A DNA stretch of 64,000 nucleotides from the sequence record PZ386963.1. One strand, 5' to 3'. Shown here in pieces: positions 3,840-63,556 of the stretch. The notes under the pieces were generated by a model. The model had not been told where the DNA came from. It searched no databases and saw only the letters and a program-made list of their open reading frames with translations. Position 1 is the first letter of the stretch; every line of letters starts with the position of its first letter. Made by a program: the position numbers and the translations under genes. Origin of the DNA: a phage.

Positions 3840-4090
3840 TTTATAAGGCTACTGCCATCCTTCCATACCTTACCTTACCACACCTAACCATACCTAACCA
3901 AACTACACCATACAATACCTTGTTAAAAGACCCTCTTTAAAGACCTTTTAAAAAGGTGAGTCTCATTTTAATGTAGCTGAGACTAACTACCCTCACCAAA
4001 CCAGACCCAACCCAGCCCAGCCATACCAGACCATACCAAACCCAACCGAACCGAACCCTACCGAACATCACTTAAAAACCCTCTTAGAAG
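3840..4090. repeat. Strand-biased C/A-rich low-complexity repeat region (G/T-rich on the transcribed minus strand)
   Basis: Repeated CCTAACC, CCATACC, CCAGCCC, CCGAACC units; no ORF. Confidence 0.6.
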
Positions 4091-4158
4091 ACTCTTAAGT
4101 GATGCTGGTGAGTACCCGTTGGTTTATGCTGCTCAGTATACTCACCAAATTTTCTATG

Positions 4159-4347
4159 TCAACAACTTTCTAATAAAGTTTTATGAAGATTTTGCTTAAC
4201 GACCCGCCTAACATGCCTATGTTCTTTCTTAATAAAGAGTGACCTCTTCTTGATAGAGCGCCTATTCTTGTAAGTGTTGCTAGGATACTTATCATGAACC
4301 GGACAACAACTCCCCGGTTTTACAAACTTGATAATCTCTCTTTTCAC
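4159..4347 (-). CDS. Small basic hypothetical protein
   Basis: 62 aa, K/R-rich. Confidence 0.3.
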   Translation of the reverse strand: MKREIIKFVKPGSCCPVHDKYPSNTYKNRRSIKKRSLFIKKEHRHVRRVVKQNLHKTLLESC

Positions 4348-5447
4348 TATTCATAATCCCTAATAACGAGACCAACAGGGAACTGTAAAGAACCCTTACG
4401 AGTCATCTTCTGGAACTGAACCGTTAAAGGCTTCCCGATAAACTCTTCAGGGTGTTCAGCAAGATACTGTTTCTTCTCGTGTGTAGTTTTCCATGAGACA
4501 TCTACAAAGACGTTAGGAAGAGTCTCTACAACGAACTTGCCATGACCACGTTTATCGGTCTTTACACCAGTCACTTTAAACTCTTCAGTGTGCATCTTCT
4601 TGTGCTTAATCAAGAAGTATGAACGGTGACAACACTCATAGAAGGAGTCTTCAGAGATTGAACGGTACATTGCACCTTCAAACTTAGCTTCAACCCACTT
4701 ATCATGAGCTTCATCAAACTCTTCCCAAGAATTTACACGGATAGTTTGTACAGGAACCACTCTACAGGTATCCCCAAGCTCAACAATAGGTGAACTATCA
4801 ATAACTTCACGACGCTCAGGCCAAGATTTTGAATTGTCACAGATATCATACCAGTAGAATTTAAGAAGGTGACGGTCTGGATTGTCAGCATTCTTAATCA
4901 TGGATACAATATCTTCTAAGTCCCAACCATGAGCATAAATCTCTCCATCAAAGTCTTCAACTTGTGGATGTAATTTAAGCAACAAAAGCAAATCTGGAAT
5001 TAGTTCTGCTGGAACGTTGTAAACAGTATTCTCACGAGAATAAGCCGTGAAGCTAACTGAATCATCATCTCTTGAAATTCTACAACGGACACCATCAAGT
5101 TTTGGTTGAGCATCAGCAGGGAACTTCAGATACTTTGCATGGCTAACCTTTGCAGCATCATGAGCAAGCTGTACACCTACCTTCTCAGTATTCTGTGCAG
5201 ACTCTTTTGTGTAAGCATAACCTTTGCGGTCAACTTGTTTCTTGTACTTAGCAGAAACTTCAAAGAGAGCTTGCTGTTCAGCGTTACGCTCATTCTTTTT
5301 ACCGATGTTTTTAGGCTCTGCTGTGTACTCTTCAAACATCATCTTGCCATTTTCTTTACCATAGGTTGTAATAACTTTGTCACCTACAGCAACACATGAC
5401 CAGACGTTGAAAGAGCCATCTTTATTTTGTTTGTACAGTATTGTCAT
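4347..5447 (-). CDS. ATP-dependent DNA ligase
   Basis: KLDGVRC adenylation motif (KxDG), 366 aa, T7-ligase-like size; RBS GAGGA upstream. Confidence 0.8.
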   Translation of the reverse strand: MTILYKQNKDGSFNVWSCVAVGDKVITTYGKENGKMMFEEYTAEPKNIGKKNERNAEQQALFEVSAKYKKQVDRKGYAYTKESAQNTEKVGVQLAHDAAKVSHAKYLKFPADAQPKLDGVRCRISRDDDSVSFTAYSRENTVYNVPAELIPDLLLLLKLHPQVEDFDGEIYAHGWDLEDIVSMIKNADNPDRHLLKFYWYDICDNSKSWPERREVIDSSPIVELGDTCRVVPVQTIRVNSWEEFDEAHDKWVEAKFEGAMYRSISEDSFYECCHRSYFLIKHKKMHTEEFKVTGVKTDKRGHGKFVVETLPNVFVDVSWKTTHEKKQYLAEHPEEFIGKPLTVQFQKMTRKGSLQFPVGLVIRDYE

Positions 5448-5448
5448 T

Positions 5449-5640
5449 TTATTCCTCTGAGTGATACCAAGTATTGCAAGCGTTACATGCGTAAAGCTCT
5501 AAGTCATTTTTATCCGGTTTATGAAAGCAGTTTGCTCCGCAGTGACAACGGAATGGCTTTCCACCAACTGTCAGGGTGAATGATTGAACCTTCCCATCAG
5601 GAGTTCGTACAGCATTTTTATGCTTGTCTTCTTTGTTCAT
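5449..5640 (-). CDS. Small zinc-ribbon protein
   Basis: CHCGANC...CNACN cysteine pairs. Confidence 0.4.
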   Translation of the reverse strand: MNKEDKHKNAVRTPDGKVQSFTLTVGGKPFRCHCGANCFHKPDKNDLELYACNACNTWYHSEE

Positions 5641-5843
5641 TTTCTCTTACCACCAATCTCTACGTCGATAACTTGAACATCACCAGCAACATCAAACTTA
5701 TGAATGATGCTTTCCACAGTGTAAGTCCAACCCTCGATTCTAACCAACTCACCTTCTCGTGGGACGATTGGATTACGTTGAGCTACCGTTGTAGTGGAGT
5801 GAACAACATCATAACGGTAGATATAGTTTACTAAGACTTGCAT
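5637..5843 (-). CDS. Hypothetical protein
   Basis: 68-aa ORF. Confidence 0.35.
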   Translation of the reverse strand: MQVLVNYIYRYDVVHSTTTVAQRNPIVPREGELVRIEGWTYTVESIIHKFDVAGDVQVIDVEIGGKRK

Positions 5844-52952: not shown

Positions 52953-52980
52953 GAAAATAAAAAAGGCTCCCGAAGGAGCC
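52953..52980 (-). terminator. Rho-independent terminator downstream of lysozyme gene
   Basis: GGCTCC-TTCG-GGAGCC hairpin with T-run on minus strand. Confidence 0.55.
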
Positions 52981-52990
52981 TATGAAGATA

Positions 52991-53455
52991 TTACTTTGGA
53001 TATAGATTGTCAAGATAAATGGCAGCTTCCATTCTACGTCTGTTTTTCAGGCCGTTTGAAGTGACCTTCTTACCTTTGACTGTAACCTTGTTCCACCACT
53101 GCATAGCTTCTGCACAACCTACCTTATTACCAGCATTGTGACGCTTGATAAATGTAGAGTCCTGCATGGCTGTGATGCCAATGTTGTATGTTTCACTTAC
53201 AAGTGCATCAAACTCGTTCTGAGAAGTTGGAACCTTGATGGCTTTGTTAACTGCTGCAACGAACTTTTCAACATCTGCGAGAAGGTACTGTTCAGCTTGT
53301 TCAGCGGTAATCTTCATACCCATCTTAACAGGCTTACCAGCAATGCGGATTGTCCCATACCCAATTGTTGGGATTCCAGCAGAATCTTCGTAAGCCTCTA
53401 GCTTAAGACCTTCAAAGAACTTAATAGCTTCTAAACCTTTTCTTGAGAGTTGCAT
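52991..53455 (-). CDS. Endolysin, T4-type lysozyme (glycoside hydrolase family 24)
   Basis: FEGLKLEAYEDSAGIPTIGYG aligns with the T4 lysozyme Glu/Asp/Thr catalytic region. Confidence 0.75.
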   Translation of the reverse strand: MQLSRKGLEAIKFFEGLKLEAYEDSAGIPTIGYGTIRIAGKPVKMGMKITAEQAEQYLLADVEKFVAAVNKAIKVPTSQNEFDALVSETYNIGITAMQDSTFIKRHNAGNKVGCAEAMQWWNKVTVKGKKVTSNGLKNRRRMEAAIYLDNLYPK

Positions 53456-54588
53456 TATGCCTCCCCTGCTGGGTTAACAGTAACTGTTGCTGCATTAGAT
53501 GTTACAGAGCCACCTGCACCAGTAACTACACAGGTGTAGCTTCCTGCATCAGCAGCGGTTGCACCTTCTTTGGTGTAAGTTGCAGTAGTTGCATCGAGGA
53601 TGTCTTCCTCACCTTTCTTCCACTGGTAGCCTGTTGCACCTGTTGCCACAACATCCAGCGTTAAGGTATCACCTTCATTGATTTCTTGATTGGTTGGCTG
53701 TTGAGTAATTACTGGAAGTGCGTTCACAGTTACTACAGCAGCATTAGATGTCACTGCACCACCTGCACCTGTTACAACGCAAGTGTATGAACCTGCATCT
53801 GCTGGCAGAGCACCAGACTTGCTATAGGTGGCATCTGTAGCCGAAGGAATGTCAGAGCCATCTTTCTTCCACTGATAACCTGTTGCACCTGTTGCAGCCA
53901 CTTCCAAGTTGATGTTTCCACCCTCATTGATGGTCTGGTTAGAAGGTTGCTGTGTAATCACAGGCAGTGCGTTGACAGTAACTGTTGCCGCATCTGAGGT
54001 AACACTTGTCCCAGCCTCTCCAGATACAACACAAGTGTATGAACCTGCATCAGAAGGTAATACAGACTGTTTTGTGTAGGTTGCAGATGTGGCACTAGTG
54101 ATATCCTCACCACCCTTTTTCCACTGATATCCAGTGGCATTCGTTGCAACAACGCTTAGGGTAAGCGTACCACCTTCATTTACTGTTTGATTGGTTGGCT
54201 GCTGAGTGATTGCTGGCGGCTTGATAGCATCCTTCAACTTAGCATTCAACATTGAGAATGGTTTAACTCTTGCCAGCCATTCACAATAAATTGTATCAAC
54301 GTCTTTACCATTGATAATTGCATATTGTAAGTCCATGAAGAAGTCAGAAGTTCTCATTTGAGCACCGATGCTGTAAAGCAACTCATCACTAAATGGAACT
54401 TTGTAGTCTGGTTTGTAGTCAAACTCCTCAACTTCTGCAATATCAGCTTCAGGCCAATATGAGCTATAGGTGAGTGGTAAAATAGCCTCTTGATATGTTC
54501 TAAAATCATATCTCTTACCAGCCTTTACATTTGCAATGAAGCCCTTCACAAACTCTTTGAAGTCTGGGTAAGTCTTTGCTTTAATCAT
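53455..54588 (-). CDS. Protein with N-terminal domain paralogous to 54585-54956 product plus three tandem Ig-like repeats
   Basis: ~85-aa unit ITQQP(S/T)NQT(I/V)NEGG...GYQWKK...GSYTCVV...TV(N) repeated three times. Confidence 0.5.
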   Translation of the reverse strand: MIKAKTYPDFKEFVKGFIANVKAGKRYDFRTYQEAILPLTYSSYWPEADIAEVEEFDYKPDYKVPFSDELLYSIGAQMRTSDFFMDLQYAIINGKDVDTIYCEWLARVKPFSMLNAKLKDAIKPPAITQQPTNQTVNEGGTLTLSVVATNATGYQWKKGGEDITSATSATYTKQSVLPSDAGSYTCVVSGEAGTSVTSDAATVTVNALPVITQQPSNQTINEGGNINLEVAATGATGYQWKKDGSDIPSATDATYSKSGALPADAGSYTCVVTGAGGAVTSNAAVVTVNALPVITQQPTNQEINEGDTLTLDVVATGATGYQWKKGEEDILDATTATYTKEGATAADAGSYTCVVTGAGGSVTSNAATVTVNPAGEA

Positions 54589-54956
54589 TTCTTTTTAGCC
54601 TCTAAATGTGCGTTTAGTCTAAAATAACCTTTGTGATGCGGAGATACATCACCAACAACAATACCTTTAACCTTATAACCTTTACCAATTACATACTGGA
54701 TATCCATAAGGAATCTTCCAAGACCAACAATATGGAACATTGGATATAATAGATTCTCAGAATCTGGAATATTGATTTCAGGTTTGTAGGTACGCTGTTC
54801 GCTTGTTGGTGTAATATCTTCTTCAGGCCACTTACTGAGTCTCCATGTCAAAGGTGTTGGGATAACATCATTAAGGTTGTACCTTTCACCATTTTGCACG
54901 GAATTGATATAGGATTGTAGGAAGCAATAAAAGTCTTTTGCACTCTTAGCTTTCAT
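54585..54956 (-). CDS. Hypothetical protein, paralogue of N-terminal domain of 53455-54588 product
   Basis: Shared MxKAKxxxDF...YINxVxxGxRY and FLMDIQY(V/A)I motifs. Confidence 0.45.
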   Translation of the reverse strand: MKAKSAKDFYCFLQSYINSVQNGERYNLNDVIPTPLTWRLSKWPEEDITPTSEQRTYKPEINIPDSENLLYPMFHIVGLGRFLMDIQYVIGKGYKVKGIVVGDVSPHHKGYFRLNAHLEAKKK

Positions 54957-55003
54957 TAAATATCCTTATAAATAGTTAAAGGGGCATCAGCCCCTATTCA
55001 CAC

Positions 55004-55821: not shown

Positions 55822-56213
55822 AGATAATCCTCTTGTCTTCTGTAATTTTGAAAGAACAGGTACAGACCAATTTCAGAGGATGAATAGTAGAGTAACTCTA
55901 CCCTTTTTGATTCCTTACAGTGATTGGTATTTTTACCTTTCTTCGGGTTGTTTGATTTTCTCATTAAGTCTCCTTTGTAGAACAAGGCAGACCTACAGCT
56001 TTAAGTAAGATGGTACAGTAATCCATACAACAAGTCAAGAACTATTGCAAGTTAAAAAAGTTGTTGACAAAGTACTTGACAAGGTGTAGGCTTATAAATA
56101 CTTAGAAGATAACTTAAAAGGTTCCTCTAAAAAGGCTATTTAAACAGATATCTTTCTGGATATCTATCTTTTATCTTAAAAGCCTTTTAAGAGGTCTTAT
56201 AAGAGGCATACCA

Positions 56214-56666: not shown

Positions 56667-58082
56667 ATGAGCGAATTATTTAAACATGCGCACCTTCATG
56701 CAGGTCGAACTGAAAATGGTGCTGTAAACCATACTTCATCAATGTCTGCTCTTGTAGACTTTTACAAAGCTGCTGGTTCAAGCCGTAGCAACGTAGAAAT
56801 CTTACCAGACCTGTTCTATAAAGCTTTGCGTGAGGATGTTGATGTTGCAGTTCGTATTTTACTGCATATGCGAGATGTACGAGAAGGTATGGGTGAGCGT
56901 AAAGCCTTCAGAACTGTTTTGCTTCAAGCAATTGAAGATAAAGTTTTAGAGCCTACACAGGTTCTTCGCATTATGGATAAGATTGCAGAACTTGGTCGTT
57001 TTGATGACTTCAAAATCTTCGCAGGTACTCGTTTCGAGACAGATGCCTTCAAACATTTAGAAGCAGCATTACTAGACCCTGCAACAGCAGGTTTGGCAGC
57101 CAAGTGGTTACCACGAGTCAAACCACGTCACAAACAGTTTGTAAAACGTTTCTGCAAGTTTGCCAACTTGAGTGAGAAAGAGTACCGCACACTGTTGTCT
57201 GCACTATCTGATACAGTTGAGCAAAAAATCTCTGCTAATGAGTTTGGTAAGATTGATTACAGTAAGATTCCTTCACTTGCTGCTGCACGTTACCAAAAGC
57301 TGTTTAACCGCAAAGATGGAGAACGCTACAAAGCTTACATCGAGTCTTTATCAAAGGGTGAGACTAAGATTAATGCTGGTGCTGTTTACCCATACGATGT
57401 GATTAAGTCTGTTAAGTATGGTAATGCAGATGTTGCTAATGAGCAATGGAAAGCACTACCAAACTGGATGGCAGAGGGTGAAAACATTCTATGTATGTCT
57501 GATGTTTCATGTTCAATGTCTTGGGTGAATTTTGGCTCCATTACTGCTCTGGATATTGGTGTATCACTTGCATTGTATGTAGCAGAACGCAATACAGGTT
57601 GCTTTAAAAATGAGTTGATGGTTTATTCAACAAACCCTCACTTCATCGAACTGAGTGGTGATTTACGAAATCGCCATCGTCAGGTGATGCGACACGTTGA
57701 ATATGGTTCAACTAACTTACAAGCAGCTTTTGACCGTATTCTTGAGACAGGTAAAAGAAACAACTTGACTCAGAAAGATATGCCAAGTAAGCTTATCATC
57801 TTCTCCGATATGGAGTTCAATCAGGTTGATGGAGCTAACGGTCGTACAAACTTTGAAGCAATTCAGAGTAAGTACAAAAAAGCTGGATATGAGATGCCAC
57901 AACTGGTATTCTGGTACTTAGCAAACCGTAATGGTACTTGCGAAGTATCTGTTAAGGATAACGGTGTAGCAATGGTATCTGGTTTCTCCCCAGCCACTTT
58001 AAAAGCTCTGCTTGGTGGTGAGAAGTTTGACCCAATCAGCGTAATGCTCAAAGCAGTAATGATTGACCGTTATATCTGGTAA
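56667..58082 (+). CDS. vWA-domain protein with N-terminal helical domain (TROVE/Ro60-like or DUF2828-like architecture)
   Basis: MIDAS-like DVSCSMS (DxSxS) with downstream conserved Thr/Asp positions; 471 aa; directly upstream of tRNA cluster. Confidence 0.5.
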   Translation: MSELFKHAHLHAGRTENGAVNHTSSMSALVDFYKAAGSSRSNVEILPDLFYKALREDVDVAVRILLHMRDVREGMGERKAFRTVLLQAIEDKVLEPTQVLRIMDKIAELGRFDDFKIFAGTRFETDAFKHLEAALLDPATAGLAAKWLPRVKPRHKQFVKRFCKFANLSEKEYRTLLSALSDTVEQKISANEFGKIDYSKIPSLAAARYQKLFNRKDGERYKAYIESLSKGETKINAGAVYPYDVIKSVKYGNADVANEQWKALPNWMAEGENILCMSDVSCSMSWVNFGSITALDIGVSLALYVAERNTGCFKNELMVYSTNPHFIELSGDLRNRHRQVMRHVEYGSTNLQAAFDRILETGKRNNLTQKDMPSKLIIFSDMEFNQVDGANGRTNFEAIQSKYKKAGYEMPQLVFWYLANRNGTCEVSVKDNGVAMVSGFSPATLKALLGGEKFDPISVMLKAVMIDRYIW

Positions 58083-58248: not shown

Positions 58249-58325
58249 CTCTGTTTAGCTCAGCTTGGTAGAGCGTTCCGTTTGGGGCGGTAAGGCCGGA
58301 GGTTCAAGTCCTCCAACAGAGACCA
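58249..58325 (+). tRNA. tRNA-Pro (anticodon TGG), CCA encoded
   Basis: Cloverleaf by eye: acceptor CTCTGTT/AACAGAG, D-arm GCTC/GAGC, loop TTTGGGG, T-loop TTCAAGT. Confidence 0.7.
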
Positions 58326-58332
58326 AATTAAT

Positions 58333-58410
58333 GTTCCAGTAGACAAAATGGTAAAGTCACCACTCTTTCAAAGTGGATATCTGAGGGTTCAAATCCCTTC
58401 TGGAACGCCA
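58333..58410 (+). tRNA. tRNA-Glu (anticodon TTC), CCA encoded
   Basis: Acceptor GTTCCAG/CTGGAAC, anticodon stem CCACT/AGTGG, loop CTTTCAA. Confidence 0.65.
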
Positions 58411-58416
58411 GTTTTG

Positions 58417-58492
58417 ACAGAAGACCAATTACAGCAAACTTAATCTTATTCATCTGAAGGTAAATCGGACAAAGAAGAGATTTGGTCTGGTC
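58417..58492 (+). ncRNA. Conserved inter-tRNA hairpin element, copy 1 (candidate small RNA or processing signal)
   Basis: ACAGAAGACCAATTACAGCAA at 5' end pairs with TTGGTCTGG at 3' end. Confidence 0.35.
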
Positions 58493-58502
58493 ATTAAGAA
58501 TT

Positions 58503-58578
58503 GCGGGTATAGAGAAAGGGCGTCTCACATGTCTCATTAGCATGGTATCGGCAGGTTCGACTCCTGCACCCGCCTCCA
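58503..58578 (+). tRNA. tRNA-Met/Ile2 (anticodon CAT) with unpaired position 1-72
   Basis: D-stem GAGA/TCTC, anticodon stem CATGT/GCATG, loop CTCATTA, T-arm GCAGG/CCTGC. Confidence 0.55.
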
Positions 58579-58583
58579 AATTT

Positions 58584-58650
58584 ACAGAAGACCGTTTACA
58601 GCAATATTTATTAAATTTTTAGCGGAAAAATTGAAAGATACGGTCTGGTA
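58584..58650 (+). ncRNA. Conserved inter-tRNA hairpin element, copy 2
   Basis: ACAGAAGACCGTTTACAGCAA ... ACGGTCTGG. Confidence 0.35.
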
Positions 58651-58661
58651 ATACTAAACAT

Positions 58662-58738
58662 GGTTAGGAAGCACATAAGGTATGTGCGGTCGCCTGTTAA
58701 GCGAATGGCACAGGGTTCGAATCCCTGACTAACCGCCA
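58662..58738 (+). tRNA. tRNA-Asn (anticodon GTT)
   Basis: D-stem GCAC/GTGC, loop CTGTTAA, T-arm CAGGG/CCCTG, 3' end ACTAACC-G-CCA. Confidence 0.65.
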
Positions 58739-58807
58739 AATTTAGGAGAGAAGCGATTGCTCACCGATTTGTAAGGTGCAAGTCCTTAGCCTGAATAGAA
58801 ATTAAAT

Positions 58808-58895
58808 GTGTCGTTATCCCGTAGATGGTAGCGGTGGGGACTGTAAATCCCTTGTCATTGAGACTCGGTAGGTTCGACTCCTACACGGCACACCA
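58808..58895 (+). tRNA. tRNA-Tyr (anticodon GTA), long variable arm
   Basis: Acceptor GTGTCGT/ACGGCAC, loop CTGTAAA, 15-nt variable arm, T-loop TTCGACT. Confidence 0.65.
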
Positions 58896-58900
58896 ATAAA

Positions 58901-58978
58901 GGTTATGTAGTTTAATTTGGTTAAAATACTCCCCTGTCACGGGAGATGATGAGGGTTCAAATCCCTTCGTAACCGCCA
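58901..58978 (+). tRNA. tRNA-Asp (anticodon GTC)
   Basis: Acceptor GGTTATG/CGTAACC, anticodon stem CTCCC/GGGAG, loop CTGTCAC. Confidence 0.65.
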
Positions 58979-59038
58979 ATTTTGAGAGGGCTATTTAGCC
59001 CCTCCCTTAAAGAGTTCTTACGAGTATTCTTTAAAGGA

Positions 59039-59113
59039 GCAGAAGACCAAATACAGCAAGTTACTTAAAATTTCAAGCCAATTTAATTTTGAAAAATTTA
59101 AAACTTGGTCTGG
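59039..59113 (+). ncRNA. Conserved inter-tRNA hairpin element, copy 3
   Basis: CAGAAGACCAAATACAGCAA ... TTGGTCTGG. Confidence 0.35.
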
Positions 59114-59125
59114 CTCAACAAATTT

Positions 59126-59258
59126 ACAGAAGACCGTTTACAGCAAAACTTAAACAATCTATTTCTCGGTAAAGAAAAGGTGAAGGTTCGATTCCTTCAC
59201 TCGGCAGATGTCGAGTTGGTGTAATGGTAGCACTTAAGATGATAAACAACGTTCTGGT
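59126..59258 (+). ncRNA. Conserved element copy 4 containing tRNA-like T-arm and D-arm fragments
   Basis: ACAGAAGACCGTTTACAGCAA ... GAAGGTTCGATTCCTTC ... GTTGGTGTAATGGTAGCAC ... AACGTTCTGG. Confidence 0.3.
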
Positions 59259-59402
59259 AATTATCTTTGTAGATAAGTTATTAAGCTTACCTGTGAGTAT
59301 GCGACCACAAAGGGTGAAAGGGTAAATTCTAGATTTAAACCCAAAAAGGCACATCGCTACAGACCTTAAGCAAGTCTGGGTAGCTTATCTACAAAGATAA
59401 TT
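59257..59402 (+). ncRNA. Candidate structured RNA closed by a 17-bp long-range inverted repeat
   Basis: TTATCTTTGTAGATAAG (59261-59277) is the exact reverse complement of CTTATCTACAAAGATAA (59386-59402), enclosing ~108 nt. Confidence 0.35.
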
Positions 59403-59406
59403 TAAT

Positions 59407-59482
59407 GGAAGTGTAGCAGAATGGTGATGCGGCAGACTTTTAATCTGACAGGCGATGGGTTCGAATCCCTCCACTTCTACCA
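59407..59482 (+). tRNA. tRNA-Lys (anticodon TTT), weak T-stem
   Basis: Acceptor GGAAGTG/CACTTCT, loop CTTTTAA, T-loop TTCGAAT; two T-stem mismatches. Confidence 0.55.
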
Positions 59483-59486
59483 AAAT

Positions 59487-59563
59487 GGTTCAGTCGCAGA
59501 TAAGGTAATGCAAGGGTCTCATAAGCCCTATGAATGTGGGTTCGAATCCCATCTGAACCTCCA
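59487..59563 (+). tRNA. tRNA-Met/Ile2 (anticodon CAT)
   Basis: Acceptor GGTTCAG/CTGAACC, anticodon stem AGGGT/GCCCT, loop CTCATAA. Confidence 0.65.
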
Positions 59564-59565
59564 AT

Positions 59566-59640
59566 TGTGGGTTAGCATAAATGGTAATGCAAACGGCTGA
59601 TAACCGTTAGAAGAGGGTTCGATACCCTCACCTACAACCA
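59566..59640 (+). tRNA. tRNA-Ile (anticodon GAT)
   Basis: Acceptor TGTGGGT/ACCTACA, anticodon stem AACGG/CCGTT, loop CTGATAA. Confidence 0.6.
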
Positions 59641-59655
59641 ATTTCAATAAAGTTG

Positions 59656-59684
59656 TTGACATTGAAATGTGACTACTTTATAGT
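59656..59684 (+). promoter_or_regulatory. Sigma70-like promoter inside the tRNA cluster
   Basis: TTGACA-17-TATAGT; flanked by ATTTCAA/TTGAAAT inverted repeat. Confidence 0.5.
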
Positions 59685-59977
59685 AACTAAAATACTTCAT
59701 AATATGTATAATTCAAACACCAATACATGAGCGTTAGACGTAACACAATGTGGGGAAATTTGTTGTACATATTCTGAATAGTTTTCGTTGCGTAGCGTCT
59801 ATTTTGCAAATTTAAAATAAATGCAAACGACAATGTTTTTCTGGCAGTAGCTTGATAGGCTAAACACCAGTGAGGTCTTCCAATCCCTCATCAAAGAATT
59901 TGGCGTACTCGCCCACGGTATGATTAATAAGGTGGGCATCTTTAAGGGCTTTCTAAGAGAGTCTTTAAAGATAATTA

Positions 59978-60059
59978 CGGGGCGTATCTCAGCGGTCTTC
60001 TAAACCGCCGTTAACCGAGTAAGTGGAGTATGCGGGTTCGAGTCCTGCCGCCTCGACCA
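59978..60059 (+). tRNA. Atypical tRNA-like gene (possible Arg, anticodon TCT); D-arm not resolvable
   Basis: Acceptor CGGGGCG/CGCCTCG, stem-loop GCGGT-CTTCTAA-ACCGC, T-arm GCGGG/CCTGC, CCA encoded. Confidence 0.4.
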
Positions 60060-60202
60060 ATTTAGTTAGCAGATTACTTAGACGACCTAAGCGGGTCTTC
60101 CTGTAGGGAGGTGGTCTGTATCTCATGTTTTCCAGAACATGTAAATAATCTGAGAAGGGGCTTTACAGTGTTGAGATAATACGGTAAGCTTCGAATTATA
60201 GT

Positions 60203-60285
60203 ATGGGACGATGTTAAGACTCTAAGGCATGAGCAACGGCCTCCAAAACCGTTTCAAAGGGGTTCAACTCCTCCGTCCCATGCCA
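60203..60285 (+). tRNA. Atypical tRNA-like gene with Trp anticodon arm (CCA); ~7 extra nt between acceptor and D-arm
   Basis: Perfect acceptor ATGGGAC/GTCCCAT, D-arm CTC/GAG, loop CTCCAAA, T-loop TTCAACT. Confidence 0.45.
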
Positions 60286-60298
60286 AAGTCTTATTATG

Positions 60299-60388
60299 GG
60301 TAGGTAGCGGCTAATGGTAGCCAAACTGTCTTGAAAACAGTTGCCACTGTAGAGATACGGTGAGGGTTCGACTCCTTTACTTACCGCC
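60299..60388 (+). tRNA. tRNA-Ser (anticodon TGA), long variable arm
   Basis: Acceptor GGTAGGT/ACTTACC, anticodon stem ACTGT/ACAGT, loop CTTGAAA, 20-nt variable arm. Confidence 0.65.
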
Positions 60389-60543
60389 TAATAAGATTTT
60401 AAAGCCAAGCTTCATTCGGATGTTGCTTTGGTATCCCTCGTGTATTGTCGTACACACTGATAAAGCACCTAGTAGGTGTCACGGAGAAGAGATAATATCA
60501 AGCTCTCCAAAGGTTCTAGTCACCGGATTAAACAAGACTATGC

Positions 60544-60566
60544 AAAGACCTTTTTAGGTCTTTTTA
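60544..60566 (+). terminator. Rho-independent terminator-like hairpin within tRNA cluster
   Basis: AGACC-TTTTTA-GGTCT followed by TTTTT. Confidence 0.5.
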
Positions 60567-60644
60567 GAGGGCTTCTAAGGTTATTACAGCTTGTTGTGGA
60601 ACCTTGTTGCTTAGGTTCTTAGAAGTTCTCTAAAAAGATTTAAT

Positions 60645-60722
60645 GGGAGATTGATGGTAATTGGTAAACCTACCATCCTTAGAAGTTGGTGTTTGAGGGT
60701 TCGAATCCCTTGTCTCCTACCA
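60645..60722 (+). tRNA. Atypical tRNA (possibly Leu, anticodon TAG; short variable arm)
   Basis: Acceptor GGGAGAT/GTCTCCT with wobble ends, loop CTTAGAA, T-arm GAGGG/CCCTT; D-arm irregular. Confidence 0.45.
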
Positions 60723-60729
60723 AATTAAT

Positions 60730-60805
60730 GCAGGTGTAGCAAAATGGTTATGCGGCTGACTCTTAATCAGTAAGACGACGGGTTCAATTCCCTCCACCTG
60801 TACCA
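60730..60805 (+). tRNA. tRNA-Lys (anticodon CTT)
   Basis: Acceptor GCAGGTG/CACCTGT, D-stem GCA/TGC, anticodon stem GCTGA/TCAGT, loop CTCTTAA. Confidence 0.6.
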
Positions 60806-60811
60806 GACATT

Positions 60812-60887
60812 GGGGTCATAGTTTATATGGTTAAAATTCGAGTTTTGCAAACTTGGGAACTGAGTTCAATTCTCAGTGACTCCACCA
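60812..60887 (+). tRNA. tRNA-Ala (anticodon TGC)
   Basis: Acceptor GGGGTCA/TGACTCC with G3:U70 pair, loop TTTGCAA, T-arm CTGAG/CTCAG. Confidence 0.7.
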
Positions 60888-60893
60888 ATTAGT

Positions 60894-60968
60894 GCATCCA
60901 TAGTTTAAACGGGAAAATTACAGTCTTCCAAACTGAGGTTGAGGGTTCGATTCCCTCTGGATGCTCCA
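60894..60968 (+). tRNA. tRNA-Gly (anticodon TCC)
   Basis: Acceptor GCATCCA/TGGATGC, loop CTTCCAA, T-arm GAGGG/CCCTC. Confidence 0.65.
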
Positions 60969-60974
60969 AACAAT

Positions 60975-61051
60975 GCTGCTTTCGTATAATTGGCTATTAC
61001 ACATCCCTTGTAAGGATGGAGATGCGGGTTCAAGTCCTGTGAGCAGCACCA
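60975..61051 (+). tRNA. tRNA-Thr (anticodon TGT)
   Basis: Acceptor GCTGCTT/GAGCAGC, anticodon stem CATCC/GGATG, loop CTTGTAA. Confidence 0.65.
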
Positions 61052-61146
61052 ATTCAGAGGTCAAGTGAAAGACCGCTGGTGTCAACTGAAGACCGTAACA
61101 AATTCCACGGAGTTGAGTTAGCGGCACAACTTCAGACCTCTTTCAC
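61052..61146 (+). ncRNA. Inter-tRNA spacer with long-range inverted repeat (candidate structured RNA)
   Basis: AGAGGTC (61056-61062) pairs with GACCTCT (61134-61140). Confidence 0.3.
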
Positions 61147-61221
61147 ACTCGCTTAGTTTATATGGTAAAACATCACCCTTACAAGATGAAGAAAAAGGTT
61201 CAAGTCCTTTAGTGAGTACCA
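61147..61221 (+). tRNA. tRNA-Val (anticodon TAC)
   Basis: Acceptor ACTCGCT/AGTGAGT, D-stem GTTT/AAAC, loop CTTACAA, T-arm AAAGG/CCTTT. Confidence 0.6.
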
Positions 61222-61222
61222 T

Positions 61223-61300
61223 GTTCCAGTATCCCAATTGGCAGAGGATGCAAGCTCAAACCTTGTATTAGTGACGGTTCGAATCCGTCTTGGAACACCA
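61223..61300 (+). tRNA. tRNA with anticodon CAA (Leu) but short variable arm
   Basis: Acceptor GTTCCAG/TTGGAAC, anticodon stem GCAAG/CTTGT, loop CTCAAAC, T-arm GACGG/CCGTC. Confidence 0.5.
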
Positions 61301-61305
61301 ATTTT

Positions 61306-61381
61306 GCAGGATTAGTTCAAATGGATAGAGCAACAGTCTACGAAACTGTTAATAGGGGTTCGAATCCCTTATCCTGCGCCA
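61306..61381 (+). tRNA. tRNA-Arg (anticodon ACG)
   Basis: Acceptor GCAGGAT/ATCCTGC, D-arm GTTC/GAGC, anticodon stem ACAGT/ACTGT, loop CTACGAA. Confidence 0.7.
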
Positions 61382-61399
61382 GATAAGCAAGAGGAATTT

Positions 61400-61642
61400 A
61401 TGCAAACATTAACCGTCGTTGAACATGAAAATTCCAATAGTATTGAGTTTGTAAGGGTTCCCACTATAGATACCCACATTTTCTTAAAAGTCGGATGGGA
61501 ATGCGACCCAATAAAAGTAGAAAGATTTATTGGTCATTGCTTTGGTGGAAGACAACTTAAAAGTATCAATTTTGAGACAATGTTACCAGAAAGCTCAGAA
61601 ACAAATAATAATGCTTACCTCCTTACGAGGGTTAGACAATGA
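61400..61642 (+). CDS. Hypothetical protein embedded in tRNA cluster
   Basis: 80 aa behind AAGAGGA RBS. Confidence 0.45.
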   Translation: MQTLTVVEHENSNSIEFVRVPTIDTHIFLKVGWECDPIKVERFIGHCFGGRQLKSINFETMLPESSETNNNAYLLTRVRQ

Positions 61643-62196
61643 GATACTTAAAATATGCTTCATGGATTTTCTTAGCTTTACTAGACCCAATTGCAGCAAT
61701 CCTAGCAGTTATCTTAGCACCTTTCGTAGTTCCATTCTACAGTGAGAAGAAAGGGCATCTACCTTTTGGATTCAGATGGATGGAGACCTATGACAACCCA
61801 ATTGATGGTGATGAAGGTCACGTTAAAAGATGGGCTAAGGTTAGAAAGATTGGTAAGCTGGGTGTCTACATGCAGAGAGTCGGATGGCTCTGGAGAAACA
61901 AAGCTTATAACTTCTCTTACCATGTATTAGGAAGAGATGTAAAAGATGTTACTAAGTGGAAAGGTAATATCAACGTAAGTTCTGACCCTGAAGATAATCA
62001 GACAGGTTATCTCCTAATGTGGAACAACAATGCTTGGGGATTATTCGCTTTTATTCCGTCAATTAAAGTCTTTGGTAAACAGTTTTACTGGAGAATCTAT
62101 GTTGGATGGAAACTAAAAAGTGTTGTCCCAGAAGAAAGAGCATTCTCAAGGGAAAGAGTTATGTTGGCATTCTTTATTCATCCACTGAGAAAGTAA
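61639..62196 (+). CDS. Membrane-anchored hypothetical protein embedded in tRNA cluster
   Basis: 185 aa, hydrophobic N-terminal ~30 aa, Trp-rich; ATGA overlap with previous gene. Confidence 0.45.
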   Translation: MRYLKYASWIFLALLDPIAAILAVILAPFVVPFYSEKKGHLPFGFRWMETYDNPIDGDEGHVKRWAKVRKIGKLGVYMQRVGWLWRNKAYNFSYHVLGRDVKDVTKWKGNINVSSDPEDNQTGYLLMWNNNAWGLFAFIPSIKVFGKQFYWRIYVGWKLKSVVPEERAFSRERVMLAFFIHPLRK

Positions 62197-62204
62197 AGAT
62201 TTAA

Positions 62205-62280
62205 AGGGGATTAGTTTACAAGGTTAAAACCTCGGTCTTTGAAATCGAAGAAGTTGGTTCAATTCCAACATCCCCCGCCA
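62205..62280 (+). tRNA. tRNA-Gln (anticodon TTG), position 1-72 unpaired
   Basis: D-stem GTTT/AAAC, anticodon stem TCGGT/ATCGA, loop CTTTGAA, T-arm GTTGG/CCAAC. Confidence 0.6.
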
Positions 62281-62282
62281 AT

Positions 62283-62361
62283 GCTCCATTACTCCAATTG
62301 GCAGAGAGGCCAGACTTAAAATCTGTGTTATGTATCGGTTCGAATCCGATATGGAGTACCA
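62283..62361 (+). tRNA. tRNA with anticodon TAA (Leu), short variable arm
   Basis: Acceptor GCTCCAT/ATGGAGT, loop CTTAAAA, T-arm ATCGG/CCGAT. Confidence 0.5.
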
Positions 62362-62366
62362 AATTT

Positions 62367-62442
62367 AGCGGTATAGCATAACTGGCAATGCAGCAGTCTC
62401 TGAAGCTGTCCTATTAAGGTTCAAATCCTTATGCCGCTGCCA
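62367..62442 (+). tRNA. tRNA-Gln (anticodon CTG)
   Basis: Acceptor AGCGGTA/TGCCGCT, D-arm GCAT/ATGC, loop CTCTGAA, T-arm TAAGG/CCTTA. Confidence 0.6.
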
Positions 62443-62473
62443 CTTCTAAGGGTTCTTACGAGAGTCCTTAAAT

Positions 62474-62549
62474 GTGGCCTTATCATAAATGGTAATGACC
62501 CATGCTGTGAACATGGTCTATACGGGTTCAAATCCCGTAGGTCACCCCA
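62474..62549 (+). tRNA. tRNA-His (anticodon GTG), discriminator C
   Basis: Acceptor GTGGCCT/AGGTCAC, D-arm TCAT/ATGA, anticodon stem CCATG/CATGG, loop CTGTGAA. Confidence 0.7.
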
Positions 62550-62554
62550 ATTTA

Positions 62555-62631
62555 TAGTCCAAGTAGCTTATATGGTTAAAGCGCGTGTCTGAAAAACATG
62601 AGAAGAGGGTTCAAATCCCACTGGACTACCA
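62555..62631 (+). tRNA. tRNA-Phe (anticodon GAA), irregular acceptor-to-D-arm spacing
   Basis: Acceptor TAGTCCA/TGGACTA, D-stem GCTT/AAGC, loop CTGAAAA, T-loop TTCAAAT. Confidence 0.55.
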
Positions 62632-62647
62632 ATTTCAAAGGTGCTTA

Positions 62648-63382
62648 ATGAAAGAGATGACAGAACAAGGTAAGGAGATTTTTAATCTCTTAAAAACCGG
62701 TAAAGGGTTTTCTAACCCACTTATTACTGGTGCAGCAGTTCTCGGTGGAACCGTAGCTGCCTCTACATCACTTGTAAGCTCTATTAGCTCTGTAACAGAC
62801 CCTACAATGAAGGAGAAGCTTGTTGCTGCTGGACTTACAACAGTCCTTCTAAACAGCTTTACAACAAGCCTGACAAGCACTACAGCAACTACTAAGACCC
62901 TAACAGACTATGGTCAAAAGTCTATTGATGAGTTTTCATCACGTATGCAGGTAGCAAAGGGGTACTCCAATGTTATGGGTGCAGCAGGAGAACAAGTTGG
63001 TTGTACACCATTCAGTGGTATTATGGGTGTTGCTACAGAGTACGGTCAGCAAGCTATTGGCATGATTAACAGCACACTAGACAGTGTTAACGGTGTGTTA
63101 AGTGATTTACAAGACGCTATTGATGAGGGTCTTGATACTGTTTCTGATTTAGCTAATCAGGCTGTTAGTAAGATTAATGAAGGTATCTCAAAGATTACAG
63201 CTTATGCAGATGAAGTTGTGCAGATGATTGAAGAAGAAGCTGCCCTTATTGCAGAGTACCTTAAAACGAATATCAATGGGTTCTTAGCAGGTATCTTACC
63301 AGACTGGTTTGATGATGCTTGTAAAACTGGTGTAATTGACACCATTGCAACACCAGAAATGAAGAGCGCATTACAGAAATAA
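62648..63382 (+). CDS. Ser/Thr-rich hypothetical protein embedded in tRNA cluster
   Basis: ATG at 62648 just after tRNA-Phe; 244 aa with low-complexity S/T segment. Confidence 0.45.
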   Translation: MKEMTEQGKEIFNLLKTGKGFSNPLITGAAVLGGTVAASTSLVSSISSVTDPTMKEKLVAAGLTTVLLNSFTTSLTSTTATTKTLTDYGQKSIDEFSSRMQVAKGYSNVMGAAGEQVGCTPFSGIMGVATEYGQQAIGMINSTLDSVNGVLSDLQDAIDEGLDTVSDLANQAVSKINEGISKITAYADEVVQMIEEEAALIAEYLKTNINGFLAGILPDWFDDACKTGVIDTIATPEMKSALQK

Positions 63383-63383
63383 T

Positions 63384-63476
63384 GGAAGATTAACCCTAAA
63401 AGGTAAGGGAGCAGTTTGCTAAACTGCCAGTAGCTGAGAAATCGGTGTACCAGTTCAAGTCTGGTATCTTCCTCCA
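63384..63476 (+). tRNA. tRNA-Ser (anticodon GCT), long variable arm
   Basis: Acceptor GGAAGAT/ATCTTCC, anticodon stem GCAGT/ACTGC, loop TTGCTAA, T-arm ACCAG/CTGGT. Confidence 0.65.
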
Positions 63477-63480
63477 ATCT

Positions 63481-63556
63481 GAATCCGTGACAGAAATGGA
63501 TATGTGCCTGTCTGCAAAACAGGTTTATAAGGGTTCGAGTCCCTTCGGATTCTCCA
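63481..63556 (+). tRNA. tRNA-Cys (anticodon GCA)
   Basis: Acceptor GAATCCG/CGGATTC, anticodon stem CCTGT/ACAGG, loop CTGCAAA, T-arm AAGGG/CCCTT. Confidence 0.65.

Follow-up and report, generated by a model that had tools for sequence, protein, structure and literature searches.

A Hoc-like hexamer decoration protein and a predicted plug-only paralog encoded beside the endolysin gene of a Felix O1-like phage

A 64,000-nt stretch of phage DNA (record PZ386963.1; hereafter, the window) carries a trio of genes on the minus strand at positions 52991 to 54956, which encode a protein of 123 amino acids (aa), a 377-aa protein with three immunoglobulin (Ig)-like repeats, and a T4-type endolysin. Based on its homology to proteins of solved capsids, the 377-aa protein is very probably the Hex-Dec of this phage, a Hoc-like capsid decoration protein, and neither a tail protein nor an accessory of the endolysin. 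The 123-aa protein is, as judged from its predicted structure, a stand-alone paralog of the capsid-binding domain (CapBD, or plug domain) of Hex-Dec. It is most likely a non-essential accessory protein that has kept the plug fold and lost the Hex-Dec mode of binding to mature hexamers. Both open reading frames (ORFs) lie on the minus strand where a first-pass annotation of the window had placed them, with products of 123 and 377 aa. The coding features of the locus are as follows.

54585..54956, minus strand: short gene, 123 aa, pI 9.1; predicted stand-alone paralog of the Hex-Dec CapBD; phrog_4463; homolog of Felix O1 ORF37, wV8 gp42, and SUSP1 agp126
53455..54588, minus strand: long gene, 377 aa, pI 4.5; putative Hex-Dec, Hoc-like hexamer-center capsid decoration protein (Bas63 Hex-Dec, Sf14 gp20, Felix O1 gp36, wV8 gp41)
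54220..54588, minus strand: CapBD of the putative Hex-Dec (aa 1 to 123), from alignment to the solved chains; Arg79 and Arg107 retained
53968..54219, minus strand: Ig-like repeat 1 (aa 124 to 207); Pfam Ig_3/I-set/Ig_2
53719..53967, minus strand: Ig-like repeat 2 (aa 208 to 290); Pfam
53470..53718, minus strand: Ig-like repeat 3 (aa 291 to 373); Pfam; counterpart of the fourth (last) repeat of Bas63 Hex-Dec
52991..53455, minus strand: GH24 (T4-type) endolysin, 154 aa; PF00959 (E = 7e-41); phrog_7, endolysin

The long protein resembles Hex-Dec in sequence, domain order, and gene position

A phmmer search of the PDB with the long protein returned chain S of 9NCF (E = 1e-287) and chain S of 9C2D and 9C3A (E = 8e-170), aligned from residue 1 onward. 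In addition, the protein matches phrog_3995 with 700 bits. The 9NCF entry is the icosahedral capsid of Bas63, a Felixounavirus phage (PMC12609058), and 9C2D that of Sf14, a Shigella phage of the genus Mooglevirus (PMC11821841). In these phages, the matching protein (Hex-Dec and gp20, respectively) decorates the capsid as a Hoc-like monomer. Its N-terminal CapBD of ~118 aa occupies the center of the pentamer-proximal hexamers only, which number 60 in the T=9 capsid, its Ig-like domains are flexible and unresolved in cryo-electron microscopy (cryo-EM), and its gene lies more than 10 kb away from the structural module (PMC12609058, PMC11821841). Sf14 gp20 is held in place by salt bridges from Arg79 and Arg107 to Asp221 of the major capsid protein, in Sf14 numbering (PMC11821841).

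Alignment of the translated long gene to the Sf14 chain shows that both arginines are present in the window protein. The long gene also lies outside the structural module, directly upstream of the GH24 endolysin gene; the major capsid gene, whose product would provide the Asp221 partner of Hex-Dec, was looked for in the 64-kb window and is absent from it. In Felix O1, the homolog gp36, encoded beside the lysin gp35, was detected by mass spectrometry in CsCl-purified virions with 44% coverage in 2010 (PMC3185647). In every property that can be read from sequence, the long protein agrees with the Hex-Dec/gp20 family. The system to which the long gene belongs is already published, with structure, capsid position, and copy-number variation described in 2025 and virion presence in that 2010 study.

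The Ig-like repeats vary in number by whole units

Pfam recognizes Ig_3 in three stretches of the long protein (E = 9e-33), together with I-set and Ig_2, which bears out the three Ig-like repeats of the first-pass annotation. Their description there as near-identical was too strong, as the units of 83 to 84 aa share 70 to 75% pairwise identity in protein and 64 to 70% in DNA. At the DNA level, the units are too diverged to register as a tandem repeat: the only array that Tandem Repeats Finder detects is one of 19 bp with period 9, and none has the period of the Ig units. The expectation that Ig-like domains of phages usually sit on virion surface decoration proteins sits well with the assignment of the long protein to the hexamer decoration proteins of Ounavirinae capsids.

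The long proteins of relatives form a size series of 210, 294, 377, and 461 aa, and the number of Ig domains ranges from one to four across Felixounavirus (PMC12609058). The third repeat of the window pairs with the fourth of Bas63 (second HMMER stretch, residues 219 to 375 versus 302 to 458 of 9ncf_S), which indicates that Ig units are gained or lost whole. The Ig region (aa 121 to 290) also matches PHROGs labeled "Hoc-like." Beyond phage homologs, its best PDB match is 9FLP, a grappling-hook protein named GhpA from Aureispira, a predatory bacterium; the match spans many repeats (E = 7e-71) and places the phage Ig units close to bacterial surface-fiber repeats.

The short protein is predicted to be a plug domain without a fiber

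The two proteins had been proposed to share an N-terminal domain of ~120 aa, and this is confirmed by sequence and fold comparison. BLASTP aligns the short protein to roughly the first 100 residues of the long one, at 38% identity over 101 aa (E = 2e-17), and their PHROG matches are reciprocal (short protein to phrog_3995, E = 6e-15; long protein to phrog_4463, E = 1e-17). The short protein matches its own family, phrog_4463, over positions 1 to 123 of 123 (E = 3e-80). This family is narrow, with 51 clusters at 68 to 98% identity in a search of 5.8 billion proteins. No Pfam family was found for the short protein, nor any PDB relative besides the Hex-Dec/gp20 chains. A profile search of 1.84 billion representatives recovered only 12 relatives, namely stand-alone and Hex-Dec forms from this phage group plus a handful of distant proteins that carry Ig- or Big-like tails, and these wider relatives of the plug domain gave no link to any other function.

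Structure prediction of the N-terminal domain, which had been suggested as a check, was carried out on the short protein and gave an AlphaFold2 model with a pLDDT of 69 and a pTM of 0.70. When queried with this model, Foldseek returned only 9c2d_S and 9ncf_S (probability, 1.00; TM, 0.62 to 0.64), the solved N-terminal domains of the long protein's homologs, and the next match had an E value of 0.9. Since the model matches solely solved capsid-binding domains, the short protein is identified, at the level of predicted structure, as a plug-domain-only paralog of Hex-Dec. This paralogy between phrog_4463 and the CapBD is the sole element of the locus for which we found no previous discussion, and the word "paralog" is absent from both structural papers (PMC12609058, PMC11821841). 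The "Tail protein" names propagated to the short protein indicate that databases had registered the similarity automatically.

The residues that anchor Sf14 gp20 are altered in the stand-alone proteins. The position of Arg79 is Gly in every stand-alone copy, that of Arg107 is His or Gln and rarely Arg, and the KPF/KPY motif of the Hex-Dec plug reads KGY. The pI also differs, being basic in the short protein (9.1) versus acidic in the Hex-Dec CapBD (5.0). Conservation within the short paralog is highest where it corresponds to the capsid-contact loops, in the segments PMFHIVGLG and GDVSPxHKGYFRLNA.

The gene trio is conserved among Felix O1-like phages

In DNA, the region shares 96 to 97% identity with numerous Felix O1-like phages (LF82P2, finno, wV8, and the O157 typing phages among them), and 250 records match. 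Judged by this similarity, the source phage is a Felix O1-like myophage of the genus Felixounavirus. The order of short paralog, Hex-Dec, and endolysin is kept in Felix O1 (ORF37-ORF36-ORF35) and other Felixounavirus species, as well as in Mooglevirus, Suspvirus, and a divergent 87-kb metagenomic contig. This Felix O1-like contig, an ENA metagenome scaffold (extracted locus, 4001 to 5726), encodes a 122-aa plug-only protein, a 298-aa Ig protein, and a lysozyme, and its plug-only protein is 45% identical to the short protein of the window. The presence of the trio in such a divergent contig indicates that the duplication is older than the named genera. A short gene that is 99% identical also occurs in a record named "Staphylococcus phage" SA1 (ACZ55588.1), which clusters with Felix O1-like coliphages; this record is probably mislabeled or contaminated.

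The short gene is under purifying selection and has been lost in one lineage

A full-length copy of the short gene was found in 233 of 253 records, covering three genera, with a constant product length of 122 to 124 aa. The short gene has a median ratio of nonsynonymous to synonymous substitution rates (dN/dS) of 0.12; the corresponding values are 0.036 in the Hex-Dec plug domain, 0.075 in the lysozyme, and 0.094 in the first Ig unit. The short gene is real and under purifying selection.

In ~19 of the 253 records (~8%), the short paralog is a pseudogene. The lineage concerned (Z31, EcF-vB, REP5, REP11, and vB_CECAV_041) was sampled in China, Egypt, the USA, and Spain, and its members have in common a ~220-bp internal deletion (window equivalent, 54884 to 54659), a lost ATG, and single-base indels. 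Hex-Dec is intact or shortened in this lineage, and in Z31 its gene is additionally broken past the first Ig unit.

Published data on relatives were consulted for both proteins. In the CRISPRi-ART knock-down screen of SUSP1, agp125 (Hex-Dec) and agp126 (the paralog) score -0.39 and -0.91, respectively, and both are classed as "Not Fit" (PMC11879866, supplement). Felix O1 gp37 is missing from the published virion list, though proteins of 9.7 to 13 kDa are included (PMC3185647), and the virion negative for the short protein rests mainly on this list. In the accessible part of the VpaE1 virion proteome, where the paralog is ORF40, only gp54, gp58, and gp68 are added to the Felix O1 set. Moreover, neither cryo-EM study shows density on the remaining hexamers (PMC12609058, PMC11821841). 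Taken together, the missing virion detection, the lack of density on these hexamers, the pseudogene lineage, and the knock-down result point to a dispensable accessory gene, and not to an abundant ordered capsid component.

Alternative explanations

The current database label of the long protein differs from the one proposed here. Most records call it "tail protein" or "putative tail protein," others "immunoglobulin I-set domain protein"; phrog_3995 is labeled "tail protein," and the UniRef name of the short protein is "Tail protein." A tail role for the long protein, and by propagation for the short one, is nevertheless extremely improbable. The protein is modeled in the capsid reconstructions of two phages (9NCF, 9C2D), and the annotation is called wrong in the Bas63 paper (PMC12609058). 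The label arose from similarity of the Ig domains to tail proteins and not from localization. The non-Ig part matches only capsid-bound PDB chains, and tail PHROGs are matched by the Ig region alone. The first-pass annotation had instead suggested that the gene pair encodes an accessory adhesion or cell-wall-binding factor linked to the endolysin. The long gene does abut the T4-type lysozyme gene (TAATG overlap; Phage_lysozyme PF00959), and both the adjacency and the start/stop overlap are strictly conserved across genera. Ig-like domains can also bind carbohydrates, which speaks for such a factor. However, the N-terminal domain is homologous to solved domains that bind capsid hexamers (9NCF, 9C2D), a result at odds with an endolysin-linked cell-wall factor, and the Felix O1 homolog of the long protein is a virion component (PMC3185647). 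Neither protein matches LysM, SH3, PG_binding, CW_7, or any other wall-binding Pfam family down to an E value of 0.1, and the genes are separate, with a stop/start overlap only and no fusion to a catalytic domain. The endolysin is a complete single-domain GH24 enzyme. Such single-domain enzymes are typical of Gram-negative phages and need no wall-binding module, which further argues against a helper protein. We therefore consider a factor acting together with the endolysin highly improbable. Of the functions first suggested, adhesion by the Ig fiber survives as a proposal made by analogy with T4 Hoc (PMC12609058, PMC11821841), whereas binding to the wall or to peptidoglycan finds no matching domain family.

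For the short protein, two further explanations have to be weighed. It could be a second hexamer-center decoration protein, a fiber-less plug on the 20 facet-center (true three-fold) hexamers that are free of Hex-Dec, or one that binds procapsid hexamers transiently during assembly. The modeled fold, shared with the solved capsid-binding domains, would suit such a role, as would the predicted co-transcription and translational coupling with Hex-Dec, the purifying selection, and the high conservation of the contact-loop equivalents. Its net positive charge would fit the acidic Asp221 ring at the hexamer center (PMC11821841), and icosahedral averaging would blur a monomer that sits on a three-fold axis. 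However, the other hexamers lack density in both cryo-EM studies (PMC12609058, PMC11821841), and the protein is not in the Felix O1 virion list, which does contain smaller proteins (PMC3185647), nor among the newly found VpaE1 virion proteins in the accessible part of that proteome. In addition, the contact arginines are replaced and one viable worldwide lineage has lost the gene, so that a bare plug of this kind appears unlikely. One form of it, in which the 123-aa protein would be retargeted through an altered basic interface, capping facet-center or pre-expansion procapsid hexamers and thereby setting the place and number of Ig fibers, is a speculative option to which we give quite a low probability; icosahedral averaging and shallow proteomics would have concealed such a plug. 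The opposite possibility, a functionless duplicate heading for decay, draws on the pseudogenes in ~19 of 253 records, the knock-down of SUSP1 without a fitness effect, and nonsynonymous evolution ~3 times faster than that of the CapBD. It is very unlikely, given that the gene is intact and of constant length (122 to 124 aa) in 233 records from three genera, and likewise in a relative with just 45% identity, that its dN/dS of 0.12 is reached at a synonymous divergence above 1, and that family-specific invariant motifs are present.

A model for the decoration proteins and their link to the endolysin

Our preferred reading combines a Hoc-like decoration protein with a dispensable accessory of plug fold. 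By homology to the solved structures, the CapBD of Hex-Dec would insert into the center of the 60 pentamer-proximal hexamers of a T=9 head, anchored in part by salt bridges that Arg79 and Arg107 form with a ring of Asp residues of the major capsid protein, with the three acidic Ig-like domains projecting outward as a flexible fiber. By the T4 Hoc analogy, this fiber, presumably non-essential for growth, probably either adheres weakly to surfaces or to mucus or regulates aggregation. The number of Ig units, one to four among relatives, would shift by gain or loss of whole units. The 123-aa protein would descend from an old tandem duplication of the CapBD alone and would have kept the fold, lost both contact arginines, and turned basic. 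Its gene, which precedes those of Hex-Dec and the endolysin, is predicted to share their terminator-bounded expression unit. The adjacency of the endolysin gene would then reflect shared, presumably late, expression and no joint function, and late co-expression of the three genes would explain the linkage without a joint biochemical role.

Several points weigh against this reading. The capsid location in the window phage is deduced from homologs in Bas63 (~95% identical) and Sf14 (~70% identical). The role of the Ig fiber in adhesion or aggregation is proposed by analogy with T4 Hoc only, and both structural papers call the function unknown. As to the dispensability of the short gene, the CRISPRi-ART screen has acknowledged false negatives, with even the lysozyme classed as "Not Fit" (PMC11879866), and the Felix O1 virion list used a 25% coverage cutoff, which makes it a weak negative for the paralog (PMC3185647). 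Finally, the conserved loop segments and the basic charge of the short protein would also fit a capsid interaction that was retained but retargeted.

Comparison with known decoration proteins

The closest known system is Hex-Dec of Bas63 (JohannRWettstein; 9NCF chain S, PMC12609058), the same gene in the same genus. Its CapBD is essentially identical, its Ig repeats 1, 2, and last match closely, and its gene has the same position beside the endolysin gene and outside the structural module. It differs in having four Ig-like domains, compared to three in the window. Sf14 gp20 (9C2D/9C3A chain S; PMC11821841) is the Mooglevirus ortholog, a monomer on pentamer-proximal hexamers with a CapBD, three Ig-like domains, and conserved Arg79 and Arg107; it is more distant, with ~70% identity and from another genus.

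Like Hex-Dec, T4 Hoc is a dispensable hexamer-center monomer with an acidic Ig-like string pointing outward and a gene away from the main head genes. However, the capsid-binding domain of T4 Hoc is C-terminal and its Ig domains are N-terminal, the reverse of the order in Hex-Dec. The CapBD is also topologically distinct from that of T4 Hoc, which is larger and pseudo-two-fold symmetric (PMC12609058), and unlike T4 Hoc, Hex-Dec occupies only a subset of hexamers, in one orientation. Membership of the long protein in the T4 Hoc family was rejected on the basis of this reversed domain order and the restriction of the matches with Hoc-like PHROGs to the Ig region. T5 pb10 (5LXK, 8ZVI) has the same arrangement as Hex-Dec, with a capsid-binding domain at its N terminus, located at hexamer centers, and a C-terminal Ig-like part, and is likewise dispensable. 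Its Ig part is detectably similar to that of the long protein (E of ~1e-10), but pb10 has a single Ig domain and its capsid-binding domain shows no sequence match, the matched stretch being the Ig region only.

The short gene of the window is a 98 to 100% identical member of the phrog_4463 family, which includes Felix O1 ORF37 (NP_944851.1), wV8 gp42, and SUSP1 AVU07_agp126 and is annotated as "hypothetical protein." For annotation, "tail protein" would become "Hoc-like hexamer decoration protein," and phrog_4463 would become "paralog of the Hex-Dec capsid-binding domain"; the window itself adds one more three-Ig allele of a known decoration protein. Purifying selection acts on a plug-only gene kept beside the full-length one, in a lytic phage group that is otherwise streamlined. 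If the short protein binds capsids, it would offer a simple natural system for decoration-protein choice between quasi-equivalent hexamers, as well as a small ready-made anchor for phage display on Felix O1-type heads.

Gene junctions and boundaries of the probable transcription unit

The three genes are closely packed and bounded on both sides by terminator-like elements.

54981..54994, minus strand: GC-rich stem-loop (GGGGCTGATGCCCC) with a T-rich run behind it; lies between the short paralog and the gene upstream; 5' limit of the three-gene unit
52964..52981, minus strand: intrinsic terminator behind the endolysin gene; 3' limit of the three-gene unit; also annotated in wV8

The upstream stem-loop is annotated as a rho-independent terminator in wV8 and is conserved in five phages. 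The short and long genes meet in an ATGA overlap. At the junction of the long and lysozyme genes (TAATG), the Hex-Dec stop codon shares one base with the endolysin ATG. A programmed -1 frameshift joining the short protein to Hex-Dec at GCT AAA AAG AAA TGA was considered and rejected: the A-rich motif is not conserved (GAAAAG in wV8; GCTAAGAA in Sf17 and Moogle), phage mistaenkt has a different frame relation between the two genes, and a conserved GAGG Shine-Dalgarno sequence precedes the Hex-Dec ATG.

A scan for sigma-70 promoters gave fewer matches than in shuffled sequence. The 10-mer TATTTATAAG occurs twice in the window, at 54965 to 54974 and 56091 to 56100, both on the minus strand, with 0.34 occurrences expected. 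The first copy follows the stem-loop and immediately precedes the short paralog, and the second falls in a divergent intergenic region at ~56.0 to 56.2 kb. The 10-mer may act as a promoter element of the phage, driving leftward transcription.

Genomic surroundings

Across the window (1 to 64000), the GC skew changes sign at ~10 kb and ~48 kb, in step with switches of the coding strand. The decoration and lysis trio lies within a leftward block at 48 to 56 kb that otherwise contains small genes of unknown function. Rfam recognized no family in the region apart from the downstream tRNAs. These form a cluster on the plus strand (58249 to 63553) with 24 matches to tRNA models, two of which score weakly (31 to 33 bits) and may represent tRNA-like elements instead of genuine tRNAs. 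Directly upstream of this cluster, a DUF2828/DUF7788 protein is encoded on the plus strand (56667 to 58082), which RefSeq names "RNA-binding protein" (TROVE/Ro-like).

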